Both the position numbers and the translations under genes were made by a program. A stretch of 52,928 bases of DNA from Bacteroidota bacterium (GTDB lineage: Bacteria; Bacteroidota; Bacteroidia; Bacteroidales; M50B96), in NCBI GenBank assembly GCA_024762835.1, contig JANTGP010000001.1, forward strand, positions 1 through 52,928. Reading direction: 5' to 3'. The number at the start of each line of letters is the position of its first letter. Position 1 is the stretch's first letter. Under the pieces are notes generated by a model, which did not search any database, was not told the origin of the DNA, and worked only from the letters and a program-made list of their open reading frames with translations. Below, one piece after another: positions 1-5,070 of this stretch.

Positions 1-300
1 TAGAATGAATAAGATGTAAGGCATAAATTTTTCTGAATAGCCTTAGCTATTGAGAAAAATTTTAACGCAACCAGATTGTTTATTATATCTGTTCCCAAAG
101 GATTTGCATAGTTTTTCATATACTTCTTCAAATTTCCTAAAATTATCGAGATAGTTCTTCATAAATTTTTATTGTCTATAAAAAACTATACAAATCTTGA
201 TGCAAATGAATTATTAGAATCCTCCTTAAATAACAAACAAACTTAATTTTAGTTTTAGGGAAATGAATTTATTAGGGTTTATTTAAAAAAAACAATTGGT

Positions 301-1629
301 TTAGTAAGCAAAATCATCCCAAAGCTTCATACGATAATTTTCTCTGTCAACAGGAAGGCAATCCTCAACAGAATTAATTTCCTCTGTTGTATAAATCATA
401 TCATTAATAAAGTCGGGGGCACGGTTCATGCTTTCGCCAATATTAACTAAAACAGATTCGCCATTCTTTAAGAGTCCTTGTTTTGCAGCTTCAAACAAGC
501 CGCCTAATGCGATTGCTGCTGCCGGTCCAATCTTAACAGCCTTCTCAAAACTTATTATTCTGGCAAGCTTTACAGCTTCTGTTTCTTTAAAGGAAATGAT
601 CTCCCCTTTGCTCTTTTTTACCAAACTGGCAATTATAGGAAAAGTTGCCGGGTTACCTGTTGCCAAAGTTGGAATCAAAGTAACAGGGTTCTCATAAACA
701 GGGTAGTCATTTTCCCAACCTTGTGGGAAATTATTCTTTTTTGCATCATTCCAACCGGCAGTCATGGGATCACAACCATCAGGCTGAATCATAATAAAAC
801 GTGAGAGTTTCTCAGTAATACCAAGCTCACTTATATCTTTCAGTCCCTTTTCAATTGCGATTGGTCCTGTCCCACCGCTTAAGGCTTGAATATACACATC
901 AGGCAAATCGCCTGTTTGGCGAAGCCATTCCCAAACCATGGTTTTTTTTGCCTCAACTCTTAATGGGTCGATGTTTCCACCTGAAATTAAAATATTATTT
1001 TTTTGAGAGAATTCAGCCGCAATTTTTTTCGCTTTGGCATAATCACCATTCACCCTGAACACTTTTTGCCCGTATGCACTTATCTCTGCTTCGTTTGCTT
1101 TTAAAGCATCCGAAGGAATAAAAACATATAATGATATTCCGGCTTTAGCCAAATAATATGCAAATGCCGATGCAATATTTCCAGTACTTGCAACCACATA
1201 CTTTTTTATTCCGTTTTCCTTAAGAACGCTGGCTGCAAGAGCTGCTGCAACATCTTTAAATGTGCCTGTTCCGGTGCTTAGATCATTTCTGTAAACGCTA
1301 ATCTTTAAATCAAGATTATAATGTTTCTTAAAATAATCGTTAAGAAAAGTCCAATTCTCAACCGGTATTCTTCCTTCACCTGCTGATATAATATTCTGCT
1401 TATCGTTTAAAGGCAAAAAATCAAAATAATGAAAAATGCTTGTTACCTCATCGTCACTTTTAGAGATAAGCTCTTTAACTTTATTATAATCGGCACTATA
1501 TTCAACATCAACCCATTTATTCCCACAATTGGGACAAGCTTGAAAGACATCAAACCATTCATTAAAATCACTAATGATATGATTACATTTCCTACACTTT
1601 AAATGGTATTTATTCTTAGGTTTTATCAT
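301..1629 (-). CDS. PLP-dependent threonine-synthase-superfamily enzyme, putative cysteate synthase (sulfonolipid precursor)
   Basis: 442-aa ORF. N-terminal Zn-ribbon (CRKC...CPNC). PLP-lysine motif GTGTFKD followed by ASTGNIASA, typical of the threonine synthase / cysteate synthase fold. Sits directly downstream of cysH and an alpha-oxoamine synthase on the same strand (gaps of 44 and 11 nt). Confidence 0.65.
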   Translation of the reverse strand: MIKPKNKYHLKCRKCNHIISDFNEWFDVFQACPNCGNKWVDVEYSADYNKVKELISKSDDEVTSIFHYFDFLPLNDKQNIISAGEGRIPVENWTFLNDYFKKHYNLDLKISVYRNDLSTGTGTFKDVAAALAASVLKENGIKKYVVASTGNIASAFAYYLAKAGISLYVFIPSDALKANEAEISAYGQKVFRVNGDYAKAKKIAAEFSQKNNILISGGNIDPLRVEAKKTMVWEWLRQTGDLPDVYIQALSGGTGPIAIEKGLKDISELGITEKLSRFIMIQPDGCDPMTAGWNDAKKNNFPQGWENDYPVYENPVTLIPTLATGNPATFPIIASLVKKSKGEIISFKETEAVKLARIISFEKAVKIGPAAAIALGGLFEAAKQGLLKNGESVLVNIGESMNRAPDFINDMIYTTEEINSVEDCLPVDRENYRMKLWDDFAY

Positions 1630-1673
1630 GTTTCTTTTTAAACTAAAATGATTTTTACGATTAAAGGAATAAA

Positions 1674-2402
1674 CTACTTATTACCGTTTTTGTCTGCAGA
1701 TAATTTATAATGAAGCCCACATTCTGTTTTAGAAAAATTAACCCAGCGTCCGCTTCTATCGCCATGAGCCCAATTGCCAGGGGCTGTACAAGCAGGTGGA
1801 GAACATCCAATTGAAGCATAACCAAACTGATATAGGCTATTATATGGTAAATTATTATCCTTAATATATTTCCATACGTCGTCCCATTTCCAGTTAATCA
1901 ATGGGTGAACTCTGATATTATCATGAGCATCAATCATAAATACAGACATCTCAGCTCTACTTTTGCTCTGATCTTTTCTTATTCCTGTCAACCAATTGGA
2001 GTATCCTGATGTTTTCATAATTCTTTCCTGAGGCTCAACTTTATTTATCGAGCAACAAGTTTCGGGATCGGAGTTATATAATTCCTTCCCATACTTTTGC
2101 TCAAATACATCTCTCGAGAGTTTTGGCTTTACAGATATCACATTTAGATTGAATTTTTTGATTATTTCATCTCTAAATTGTAATGTCTCAGGAAAATGAT
2201 AACCCGTATCAATAAAATATACCGGTATGTCTTTCCCCATTTGTCTGATTAAATCAAGAATAACAACACCAGAGATTTGAAAGGAAGTTAGAATAGCCAA
2301 GTCAGGGAATAATTTTTTTATACTCCATTTCAGAATGCTAAGTGGATCTGCATCTTTGAATTGCACATTCAGTTGTCTCAAATCTCCTTGTTGTATTCTC
2401 AT
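1674..2402 (-). CDS. cysH: Sulfonucleotide (APS/PAPS) reductase, CysH family
   Basis: 242 aa. C-terminal catalytic ECGLH motif (SKTECGLHY). Cys pair ETCCSINK plus GCSPPAC, which resembles the Fe-S cluster ligands of APS-type reductases. PAPS_reduct-like core (VYFIDTGYHFPET). Confidence 0.8.
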   Translation of the reverse strand: MRIQQGDLRQLNVQFKDADPLSILKWSIKKLFPDLAILTSFQISGVVILDLIRQMGKDIPVYFIDTGYHFPETLQFRDEIIKKFNLNVISVKPKLSRDVFEQKYGKELYNSDPETCCSINKVEPQERIMKTSGYSNWLTGIRKDQSKSRAEMSVFMIDAHDNIRVHPLINWKWDDVWKYIKDNNLPYNSLYQFGYASIGCSPPACTAPGNWAHGDRSGRWVNFSKTECGLHYKLSADKNGNK

Positions 2403-2413
2403 AACATCATATA

Positions 2414-3718
2414 TTATTTTACAACCATTTTAGTAACAGTATCAGAATCATATTTTCCTGAGAGCAATTTCTCATGTACTTCAGCAAAGGAATTTATTGT
2501 ATATTCAACATCTTCAAGGCTGTGTGCCGCAGTTGGTATTAACCTAAGCATAATAACTCCCTTAGGAACAACCGGATAAACAACTATTGAACAAAATATT
2601 GCATAATTCTCACGTAAGTCAAGAAGTACATTGGTCGCTTGTGCAATATTTCCTGAAAAGAAAACCGGAGTAACAGGTGAGTTTGTATTACCCAAATTAA
2701 AGCCTTTTTCTTTAAGACCATTTTGTAAGGCATTTACAATCTTCCATAAGTTTTCGCGTAGATAATCAGCATTTTTCAATAGCTCAAGCCTTTTCAAAGC
2801 ACCAACTACCATAGGCATAGGAAGTGATTTGGCAAATATTTGCGAACGCATGTTATATCTCAAGACATCTATTATTTCTTTTTTTGAGGCAACAAAAGCA
2901 CCTATACCTGCCATAGCCTTTGCAAATGTTCCAAAATATATATCAACTTCATCCTGACAACCAAGAAATTCGCCTGTACCGGCACCAGTTTTTCCCATAG
3001 TTCCAAAACCATGAGCATCATCAACAAGCAGTCTAAAACTAACCCTCTTTTTAAGTGCTGTAATCTCATCTAATTTACCTAGGTCTCCGGACATTCCAAA
3101 AACACCCTCAGTAATAACCAGGATTCCACCACCTGATTTTTTTGCAACTTTTTCTGCATGTTTGAGTTGTGTTTCAAGACTCTCCATATCATTATGAGCA
3201 TACACAAAGCGTTTGCCCATATGTAATCTCAATCCATCCAATATACAAGCATGAGACTCGGAGTCATATACTACAACATCCTTTCTGTCAACAGATGAGT
3301 CAATAATTGAAACCATTCCCTGATAGCCATAGTTTAATAAATAAGCAGATTCCTTACCTACAAACTCAGCAAGTCCCTCTTCAAGTTCCTGATGTTTGGC
3401 AGTTTGACCTGACATAATCCTTGCACCCATAGGATAAGCTAATCCCCATTCTTTTGAGGCTTCAGCATCAATCTTTCTAACTTCGGGGTGATTTGCCAGA
3501 CCAATATAATTATTAAGACTCCATGTCAACACCTCTTTTCCTTGAAATTTCATATGGGAATCTATCTCACCTTCTAAAATTGGGAAAGTATAATATCCAT
3601 CGGCAGAGTCCATATATTGTCCCAAATCCGTTTTCTTAGACTCTAATTTTTTGAAAATATCAACCATTATTATTAATTTATTTTTGTTTATTTTTCCTTC
3701 AATTACAAAAGTCGACAT
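2414..3718 (-). CDS. Alpha-oxoamine synthase family acyltransferase (KBL/AONS/SPT-like), putative cysteate-C-fatty-acyltransferase
   Basis: 434-aa ORF. The real start may be the second ATG at 3667 (MVDIFKKLESKK). Motifs DDAHGFG and the PLP-lysine motif GTFAKAMAGIG. The specific substrate is inferred only from the adjacent cysteate-synthase-like and cysH genes. Confidence 0.7.
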   Translation of the reverse strand: MSTFVIEGKINKNKLIIMVDIFKKLESKKTDLGQYMDSADGYYTFPILEGEIDSHMKFQGKEVLTWSLNNYIGLANHPEVRKIDAEASKEWGLAYPMGARIMSGQTAKHQELEEGLAEFVGKESAYLLNYGYQGMVSIIDSSVDRKDVVVYDSESHACILDGLRLHMGKRFVYAHNDMESLETQLKHAEKVAKKSGGGILVITEGVFGMSGDLGKLDEITALKKRVSFRLLVDDAHGFGTMGKTGAGTGEFLGCQDEVDIYFGTFAKAMAGIGAFVASKKEIIDVLRYNMRSQIFAKSLPMPMVVGALKRLELLKNADYLRENLWKIVNALQNGLKEKGFNLGNTNSPVTPVFFSGNIAQATNVLLDLRENYAIFCSIVVYPVVPKGVIMLRLIPTAAHSLEDVEYTINSFAEVHEKLLSGKYDSDTVTKMVVK

Positions 3719-3918
3719 TTATACAGTGTAAATAGTCCAAGCTAAGAAACACGGACCAATTAAAACAATCTAAGAGCAGATAATAAGCACAACAAGCCCT
3801 CTGCAAGATTTTGATAACATGAATCTTACGCTAAAAACACTCAAAAACATTTTAAATTGGAAGTTATTTCTCTTTGGAAAGAAAACTACAAATAATATGG
3901 TTTAGATTGATTCTTATT

Positions 3919-5070
3919 CTAATCAAAAGACTTAAAACTTTGCTCATATTTGATATCCCGCTTCTCAAATTCATCAAATAAAAAGTTAACACAATCCTCA
4001 CGTTTGCCAATGTGCTCAGGAAGGATTAAGCCCTTATTATTAATCATACCATTTATAAGCATACGAAGTGTAATAGTTGCTGTATATCCTGTTGTTCTTG
4101 CCATGGAATGAATACCTGATTTCAAATCCTTTTCATCGTAAAGAAAGAATGATATTTCCATATTCTTTCCGTCTTTAATTCCCTTTGCTTTAACCTGCAT
4201 GATTGTAAAATCTATCTCATCATGTTCAAGTTTCCATTTTGGGAAAAGAAGCTTTGCAGTTAAGTCGACCGGGCTTACTTTATTACCATTTATATCAATC
4301 TCTTCTGTATCAAATAAGCCTATCTCTCGCAATAAAGTCATTTTCTCAATATGTCCGGGGTAACGTAAAGTTTTCTCTTTTAAGAAAGGGGCATCTATGG
4401 TTTTGGCCAAAGTCCTTAGTCCATCGCTATTAAAAGCTTCAAGAGTGCCAACTTTTGGGAAATTTATTAATTCAGCTTCGCTGAGGGCAGGTCTTACAAC
4501 AAGCTTTCCATGCTCAATTATTCTTGCTGGTCTTGTGTATTCCTCAATCACATCAATAGGCGAAAAGACTGCTTTGTATTCAAAAGGTAATTCTCTCTTT
4601 TGTGGAAGTCCGCCAACATAAATCACTCCTTCCTTAATTTTATCCAGCAAAAATCCGGCATATCCCATAAGAACATTACTCATTCCAGGAGCAACTCAGC
4701 TATCGACTATACAGCTCACATTATTTTCAAGGGCAAGTTCATCCAAATCATAAGGTTCTTCGGGGAAGAAGGCAATATCAACAACATCTTTACCTGAACG
4801 AATAATAGTTTTTACAGTTTCGTATCCCATAAACCCCGGGACTGCATTTATAACATAATCAAAATTGCTTAATAACTTTCTCAACTCAAGCTTATTAGAT
4901 AAATCAATATTAACTTTAGTAATTCCGGTACTTTCAGGAATTAAATCAAGCGATTTAATATTTATATCGGCAATTGTAACAGCAAAGTTCCCATCTTTTA
5001 TTAAATCTAATGCCATTGGCCGACCTACCAAACCTGCACCTAAAACAATAATCCTAACTTTATCACTCAT
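3919..5070 (-). pseudogene. Saccharopine dehydrogenase-family NAD(P) oxidoreductase interrupted by a single in-frame TGA (4696-4698)
   Basis: ORFs 4696..5070 (Rossmann N-terminus, IIVLGAGLVGRPMA) and 3919..4683 (C-terminal domain) are in the same frame. The minus strand reads ...VSCIVDS-TGA-VAPGMSNVLMGY.... There is no frameshift, only the one stop. Confidence 0.6.

Follow-up and report, generated by a model that had tools for sequence, protein, structure and literature searches.

A Bacteroidales gene cassette that likely encodes a sulfonolipid head-group module, with a candidate third cysteate synthase and its own sulfite supply

Three genes located on the minus strand at the very beginning of contig C1 of a Bacteroidales metagenome-assembled genome (MAG) are the subject of this work. 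The analysed stretch of DNA, hereafter the window, comprises the first 52.9 kb (52,928 nt) of this contig; the MAG consists of 3.28 Mb in 317 contigs (90% complete, 1.9% contaminated), and its DNA occurs in hydrothermal-vent metagenomes. The three genes encode, respectively, an orthologue of the CapB/SulA cysteate-C-fatty-acyltransferase (CFAT; P0001), a CysH sulfonucleotide reductase of the kind that acts on adenylyl sulfate (APS) or 3'-phosphoadenylyl sulfate (PAPS) (P0002), and a pyridoxal-phosphate (PLP)-dependent Zn-ribbon enzyme with the threonine synthase (ThrC) fold (P0003), which belongs to a clade denoted here T3 (Table 1). From comparative genomics, we consider it likely that this cassette is a self-contained module for the head group of a sulfonolipid of the capnine/sulfobacin type, in which T3 would be a third cysteate synthase provided with a dedicated supply of sulfite.

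The same-strand arrangement with gaps of 11 and 44 nt described in the original prediction matches the open reading frame (ORF) calls, and the motifs quoted there (the PLP-lysine motif of the alpha-oxoamine synthase (AOS), ECGLH, GTFKD and the Zn-ribbon) are all present in the translations; the Pfam and NCBIfam domains are Aminotran_1_2/AOS in gene 1, PAPS_reduct in gene 2 and PALP/ThrC-like in gene 3. The minus strand of positions 1-4200, the interior of the cassette included, yielded no terminator-like site, which together with the short spacers is consistent with a single transcript, and we infer that the three genes are co-transcribed. The promoter presumably lies in the intergenic region upstream of gene 1; an exact Bacteroidota TAnnTTTG box was not found upstream of this gene, the only near match being at ~3897, and sigma-70 promoter scans are not meaningful for Bacteroidota. 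The contig begins 300 nt downstream of gene 3.

Table 1. Genes and non-coding features of the cassette (positions in the window)
Feature	Positions	Strand	Length	Assignment or remark
Gene 1, P0001	2414-3718	minus	434 aa	CapB/SulA/CFAT orthologue; first gene of the cassette
CapB-CysH spacer	2403-2413	minus	11 nt	
Gene 2, P0002	1674-2402	minus	242 aa	CysH sulfonucleotide (APS/PAPS) reductase
CysH-T3 spacer	1630-1673	minus	44 nt	
Gene 3, P0003	301-1629	minus	442 aa	Zn-ribbon threonine-synthase-fold PLP enzyme, clade T3
Upstream intergenic region	3719-3918	minus	200 nt	Sole long non-coding gap on the strand

The assignment of gene 1 to the cysteate-C-fatty-acyltransferase type, originally proposed from the sequence alone, was upheld by the placement that we ran, in which P0001 groups with CapB/SulA/CFAT and not with serine palmitoyltransferase, KBL or BioF. 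The scores are 613.6 bits against PDB 7u7h (Alistipes finegoldii) and 594.5 bits against 28eh ('Cysteate-C-fatty acyltransferase'), compared with 234.6 bits for serine palmitoyltransferase, 217 bits for KBL and ~143 bits for BioF, and none of the NCBIfam equivalogs for the latter three enzymes is passed. The alignment with 28eh is full-length and free of gaps, the numbering differing by 17 residues throughout, and the PLP lysine of P0001 is K267, within YFGTFAKAMAGIG. Among the 17 COCFAT residues that contact PLP-cysteate or shape the cysteate pocket (N52, G81, A82, F113-G114-Y115, H139, C141, E187, D216, F245, T247, A249, K250, M277, F278 and K280; PMC13692747), 15 are identical in P0001, including N69, G98, A99, H156, K267 and K297, and the remaining two changes (F113 to Y130 and M277 to I294) are conservative. 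CapB orthologues across the order are 69-76% identical to P0001. That P0001 is a CFAT appears close to certain. Because its homologues and the sequences of both crystal structures align from M18, the true start of the AOS is probably this methionine (ATG at 3667).

P0002 passes NF002537 (232.7 bits, cut-off 154) and matches PF01507 with an E-value of 1.6e-50; the catalytic cysteine is found in KTECGLHYK (ECGLH at 227-231, C228), and the protein contains four cysteines of the Fe-S type (CC116/117 ... C200-x4-C205 ... EC228GLH). The score against TIGR02055 is 184, below the cut-off of 235, and the second cysteine pair is CX4C rather than CXXC; the CX4C form is common to the cassette-linked CysH proteins of loci L004, L008 and L061, with CXXC in other CysH. 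P0002 would use either APS or PAPS as its substrate. Both compounds can be made by this organism because CysD and a CysN/CysC fusion are encoded on contig C66. These genes (C66:3000-14980, L060) are located inside a polysaccharide locus that also includes a UpxY antiterminator, a UDP-sugar dehydrogenase, a Wzm/Wzt exporter and glycosyltransferases, and accordingly PAPS may also serve polysaccharide sulfation. A sulfite reductase (NIR_SIR, PF01077) was not found in the genome by a search that detects one in 11 of 14 control genomes. The genome does encode a CysK/M that passes TIGR01136, so cysteine could be made from sulfide, and, with DNA of this organism coming from vent metagenomes, ambient sulfide would be available. 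Most simply, P0002 would serve to produce sulfite rather than sulfide, and the role of this protein as a sulfite generator is well supported by the combination of the missing reductase and the gene linkage.

P0003, the product of gene 3, misses every NCBIfam cut-off: it scores 172.9 bits against PRK08197 (ThrC; cut-off 303), 128.3 bits against TIGR03844 (cut-off 324.9), the profile of the archaeal-type cysteate synthase, such as the Methanosarcina enzyme of coenzyme M synthesis, and 97.5 bits against TIGR00260 (ThrC; cut-off 167.1), and its profile matches include none to NF053679 (CapA). The PLP lysine is K125, in GTGTFKDVAA, and the N-terminal CxxC...CxxC ribbon consists of C12, C15, C32 and C35. 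The best sequence matches in PDB are ThrC structures (~99 bits); the match to the 'Cysteate synthase' 9k3c, described as 'CapA2 from Alistipes finegoldii', is only 40 bits. The latter protein is of the TIGR03844 type, scoring 607 bits against the TIGR03844-type protein of genome G243. Two other ThrC genes of the MAG pass TIGR00260 (178.9 and 263.2 bits), hence T3 is not the housekeeping threonine synthase; no enzyme of the CapA type was found in this genome, the best CysK-like protein reaching 210 bits against NF053679 (cut-off 600). Many MAGs of uncultured Bacteroidales, Marinilabiliales and Salinivirgaceae encode homologues that share 57-72% identity with P0003; the source names of these proteins are only 'pyridoxal-phosphate dependent enzyme' or 'threonine synthase'. 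The original prediction that the PLP enzyme is a cysteate synthase thus has to be modified: P0003 is not of the TIGR03844 type, although it also passes no threonine synthase cut-off and falls in a clade of its own. Likewise, the general premise that cysteate synthase is a threonine synthase homologue holds for the archaeal/CapA2 type only, the Capnocytophaga CapA being CysK/CBS-like (NF053679).

For the phylogenetic analysis, P0003-type and CapA2-type proteins were collected from a sample of 200 genomes of the order, the same set being searched with each query, and combined with the nearest representatives of 50%-identity clusters from 1.8 billion proteins. In the careful tree (62 rows, LG+C20+F+G4), the T3 clade and the CapA2-type clade are each supported at 100/100 and are separated by three well-supported splits, and the AU test rejects their union in one clan (delta lnL 37.5, p=0.008). 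Invariant substitutions specific to T3 are present at positions conserved in ThrC (K114R, E116D, N221D, G227A and E368G), along with an insertion of 16 residues near residues 290-310. By these sequence comparisons, T3 is a clade of its own that comprises neither bona fide threonine synthases nor archaeal/CapA2 cysteate synthases nor CapA. The AF2 model of P0003 is of high confidence (pLDDT 93.7); the fold search with this model did not discriminate between functions. Five positions shared by T3 and CapA2 (Y197, Y246, Q248, A249 and G255) were considered as a potential signature and rejected, being present also in the neighbouring ThrC-like group.

Examination of gene neighbourhoods shows that T3 is repeatedly the last gene of an operon for sulfate uptake, activation and reduction that ends at sulfite, often next to the enzyme that consumes cysteate. 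The gene order of the window, CapB-CysH-T3, recurs in G468 and L004; a small ORF and a YeiH family transporter are inserted between CysH and T3 in G498 and L008, and an anion symporter in G421. In G591, G462 and G525, CapB is divergent from a VOC-CysH-CysD-CysN-DASS/CitMHS anion symporter-CysQ-T3 array, CysH-CysD-CysN-T3 is found in G417 and G554, and T3 in a shorter form (~406 aa) directly adjoins CapB in G530, G487 and G441. Altogether, T3 is linked to CapB and/or CysH in at least 10 sampled genomes from at least eight families; genes of the CapA2 type never adjoin CapB in the order sample. The physical linkage of the sulfite-generating step to both other enzymes, which had been noticed in the window, is therefore not confined to it: the CysH-ThrC-like-CapB association recurs in other families, and in the MAG it is accompanied by CysD and CysN/C, with no NIR_SIR found. 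The proximity of CysH to CapB in G495 was judged coincidental.

The distribution of these genes across the order sample is consistent with such a connection. CapB was detected in 151 of the 200 genomes. T3 is present in 37, of which 36 have CapB, and CapA2-type proteins above the TIGR03844 cut-off are present in 39, of which 37 have CapB; CapA did not reach the NF053679 cut-off in any of 201 genomes of the order (including the 200 sampled). No genome has both T3 and CapA2, compared with ~9 expected under independence (hypergeometric P=5e-6, with the reservation that related genomes are not independent), and this mutual exclusion extends into genus g183, where G402 has T3 and G545 has CapA2. 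Sulfite reductase (PF01077) is found in 17 genomes of the sample, none of them among the 37 T3 or the 39 CapA2 genomes. CysH, at a threshold of E<=1e-30, is present in 107 genomes, that is, in 96 of the 151 CapB-positive genomes vs 11 of the 49 CapB-negative ones; 93 genomes have CysH without sulfite reductase, and 86 of these have CapB. Among the seven that lack both sulfite reductase and CapB, four carry another sulfonolipid-associated gene. T3 was not detected in any of the 400 genomes of a phylum-wide sample, indicating a restricted distribution.

Neither T3 nor CapA2 was identified in 78 of the 151 CapB-positive genomes, 54 of which have CysH. Inspection of the CapB neighbourhoods in 20 of the genomes without T3 and CapA2 revealed only the housekeeping BamD-CoaBC-DUF4835-RecN block and no PLP enzyme. 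Because none of the 200 genomes has CapA either, at least one further, so far unrecognised cysteate source probably exists in the order.

Several additional associations were observed in these loci. An SDR (~265 aa) and a two-domain protein of the VOC/glyoxalase superfamily (~359 aa, with no NCBIfam match) are paired beside CapB and/or T3 in at least eight loci (for example, L004:3502-5505, L065:1169-3256 and L071:5318-6397); in the MAG the pair is located outside the window (G000:C108:5392-7249), and its SDR is 59% identical to those linked to CapB and T3 elsewhere. The VOC protein is encoded in 66 of the 200 genomes, 64 of which have CapB (29 of the 37 T3 genomes, 8 of the 39 CapA2 genomes and 28 of the 78 with neither), and is a candidate for an extra gene of the sulfonolipid pathway. 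In two genomes that gave no CysH match, the short-form T3-CapB pair is directly followed by genes resembling HdrC and 4Fe-4S ferredoxin (L064:168-3391; L065:229-1166), which may hint at an alternative redox route to sulfite. A homologue search with the short T3 type retrieved nothing but unnamed proteins from MAGs; no sulfonolipid producer in culture was among the matches. In several genomes, T3 lies apart from CapB and CysH, tightly behind a TPR protein of ~466-470 aa (L005:6571-9332; L067:7140-9908).

Upstream of the cassette are a saccharopine-dehydrogenase-family gene, MurI, two OmpH, BamA and UppS, housekeeping genes that are typical of Bacteroidota. The two same-family genomes in the sample have no CapB, CysH, T3 or VOC gene; both retain the CBS-NADK-DUF6089-UppS-BamA-OmpH-OmpH-MurI-saccharopine dehydrogenase synteny, which is followed by unrelated genes. 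Since the flanking synteny is kept without the cassette, the latter behaves as an accessory unit that is gained or lost. The saccharopine-dehydrogenase-family gene (window 3919-5070) is split by a single TGA (4696-4698) into ORFs of 124 aa and 254 aa in the same frame, compared with a single 380-aa ORF in each of the two same-family genomes; a pseudogene, a sequencing error and recoding are the candidate explanations.

The published pathway of sulfonolipid synthesis starts with CapA or CapA2, followed by CapB/SulA/CFAT and then CapC/KCR (PMC10191378, PMC9304779, PMC11211663, PMC13692747); according to a review, CapA is replaced in Alistipes and Odoribacter by a cysteate synthase of the archaeal type (PMC10191378), and cysteate synthase is not mentioned by Radka 2022 (PMC9304779). 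In the best-supported mechanism for the cassette, CysD and the CysN/CysC fusion, both encoded outside it on C66, would convert sulfate to APS and PAPS, one of which would be reduced by the Fe-S-type CysH to free sulfite. T3 would then use this sulfite, in a PLP-dependent reaction, to replace the phosphate of O-phospho-L-serine, yielding L-cysteate. In the next step, P0001 is predicted to carry out a decarboxylative condensation between a fatty acyl-CoA (or acyl-ACP) and cysteate to form 3-ketocapnine, which the SDR encoded on C108 would probably reduce to capnine. The proposed substrates and product of T3 are suggested by its operons with CysH, CysDN, CysQ and CapB, by the complementarity with CapA2 and by the failure to find a sulfite reductase; the role of T3 rests on gene context, as the original prediction stated for the substrate specificities in general, and on complementary distribution and pathway logic. 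In evolutionary terms, we somewhat favour a scenario in which T3 is the third cysteate synthase, after CapA and CapA2, recruited independently from Zn-ribbon threonine synthases, and forms together with its dedicated CysH a mobile module leading from sulfate through cysteate to ketocapnine; under this scenario, assimilatory sulfate reduction in the order stops at sulfite and mainly feeds sulfonolipid synthesis.

Several observations weigh against assigning T3 to cysteate synthesis. T3 proteins are only 22-27% identical to those of the CapA2 type; P0003 scores higher against the ThrC profile than against the cysteate synthase profile; in the careful tree, T3 nests among Zn-ribbon PRK08197-like 'threonine synthases', next to P0139 and P0150; and the AF2 model has its best matches among ThrC structures (TM 0.87-0.89, with 0.66-0.68 for CapA2). 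A residue signature exclusive to T3 and CapA2 was sought in these proteins and none was found. With the MAG 90% complete, the absence of sulfite reductase is not proven, kinship among the genomes makes the evidence look stronger in the Fisher and hypergeometric p-values than it is, and 13 of the 37 T3 genomes have no CysH match at the threshold used. Furthermore, the deep branches of T3 (37-41% identity) do not adjoin AOS or CysH genes. The genes for P0129, P0131 and P0137 on these branches (L078, L080 and L081), whose products are 35-40% identical to P0003, are located among glycosyltransferase, CTP-transferase, polysaccharide pyruvyl transferase or WXG100/FtsK genes, and the deeper T3 clade may have other roles.

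Since T3 derives from threonine synthases, its substrate or product may differ from those proposed here. T3 might make another sulfur amino acid, such as homocysteate from O-phosphohomoserine and sulfite, S-sulfocysteine from thiosulfate, or cysteine as an O-phosphoserine sulfhydrylase, with the cysteate for CapB coming from elsewhere. O-phosphohomoserine is the native substrate of the Zn-ribbon ThrC-like proteins from which T3 descends, an alternative cysteate source must exist in the CapB-positive genomes that lack both T3 and CapA2, and a cysteine synthase gene is often found at the end of sulfate-assimilation operons. However, sulfide cannot come from this pathway in the T3 genomes, in none of which a sulfite reductase was found, and the MAG already possesses a CysK/M; moreover, the cysteate pocket residues are conserved in the adjacent CFAT gene, and the strict complementarity with CapA2 would be hard to explain if the products differed, so we consider this alternative unlikely. 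It is also conceivable, although with still lower probability, that the cassette, while genuine, leads in this uncultured lineage to something other than a membrane lipid of the capnine type, cysteate and ketocapnine instead ending up in a different sulfonated compound, for instance a signalling lipid or a secondary metabolite. Such a possibility is suggested by the location of the later pathway genes (the reductase and the N-acyltransferase) outside the cassette and by the conserved two-domain VOC protein that travels with CapB; it is countered by the close similarity of P0001 to CapB orthologues across the order, by its scores of ~600 bits against enzymes shown to start capnine or sulfobacin synthesis (PMC9304779, PMC13692747) and by the presence on C108 of an SDR of the CapB-linked kind.

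The view that T3 is an ordinary diverged paralogue of threonine synthase, that CysH is a housekeeping gene and that their position beside CFAT is coincidental appears very improbable. The JGI name of the homologues is indeed 'threonine synthase', the best fold and PDB sequence matches are ThrC structures, and in some genomes T3 is found away from CapB, beside the TPR protein. Yet T3 is below all ThrC cut-offs in a genome where two other genes pass, its linkage to CapB and/or CysH recurs across families, and all T3 genomes but one have CapB; the lack of T3 in the phylum-wide sample does not resemble a housekeeping pattern, and the invariant substitutions fall on positions conserved in ThrC. The involvement of T3 in cysteate synthesis, with CysH as the source of sulfite, therefore remains our preferred interpretation.

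Two aspects of this system appear to be new, namely a third candidate lineage of cysteate synthases that is neither CapA nor CapA2, and the physical integration of a sulfite-generating CysH with T3, which in relatives is extended to a whole sulfate-to-sulfite operon; within an incomplete coverage of the literature, we found no paper that links cysH or a threonine-synthase-like enzyme to sulfonolipids, or that deals with 'CapA2'. Bacteroidota sulfonolipids influence gliding motility, inflammation in the host (via TLR4) and the development of choanoflagellates. Surveys of the organisms that make these lipids depend on recognising the cysteate synthase step, and homology searches that start from CapA or CapA2 would probably overlook T3, owing to its low identity to CapA2 and its score below the TIGR03844 cut-off, despite it being common in uncultured Bacteroidales MAGs. 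If the proposed function is correct, T3 is the third case in which a fold-type II PLP enzyme was recruited for making cysteate, and provides a physiological reason for the 'orphan' cysH and cysDN genes of anaerobic Bacteroidales that have no sulfite reductase.

Each component of the cassette can be compared with a known system. With the CapA2/archaeal type (TIGR03844; 9k3c), T3 shares the ThrC fold (fold-type II PLP), the occurrence in CapB-bearing Bacteroidales and, putatively, the reaction; the differences are that the Cys4 ribbon is kept in T3 and missing in the Bacteroidales CapA2-type proteins, and that only T3 often has CapB as its neighbour. The Capnocytophaga CapA (NF053679), for which the conversion of O-phosphoserine and sulfite to cysteate has been proposed, would have the same pathway role as T3 (PMC10191378) but belongs to another fold-type II subfamily, with a CysK-like profile of 329 positions. 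The nearest relatives of P0003 in both sequence and fold are the Zn-ribbon threonine synthases (PRK08197/NF006050; 2zsj, 1v7c and 2d1f), which have the same Cys4 ribbon, FKD PLP-lysine motif and S-T-G-N loop; unlike these enzymes, P0003 is encoded in a sulfur-metabolism context and not in a thrA/thrB context. P0002 resembles the assimilatory APS/PAPS reductase CysH in its domain, the ECGLH motif, the four Fe-S-type cysteines and the passing of NF002537, and differs in the CX4C second pair, in having no sulfite reductase partner found and in being embedded between two sulfonolipid genes. Finally, P0001 has the PLP lysine and the PMGAR loop of CapB/SulA/CFAT (7u7h, 28eh/28fa), as well as Asn, His and Lys at the positions for which sulfonate contacts are reported (PMC13692747), and is distinguished from these enzymes by its gene heading an operon with CysH and a ThrC-fold enzyme.

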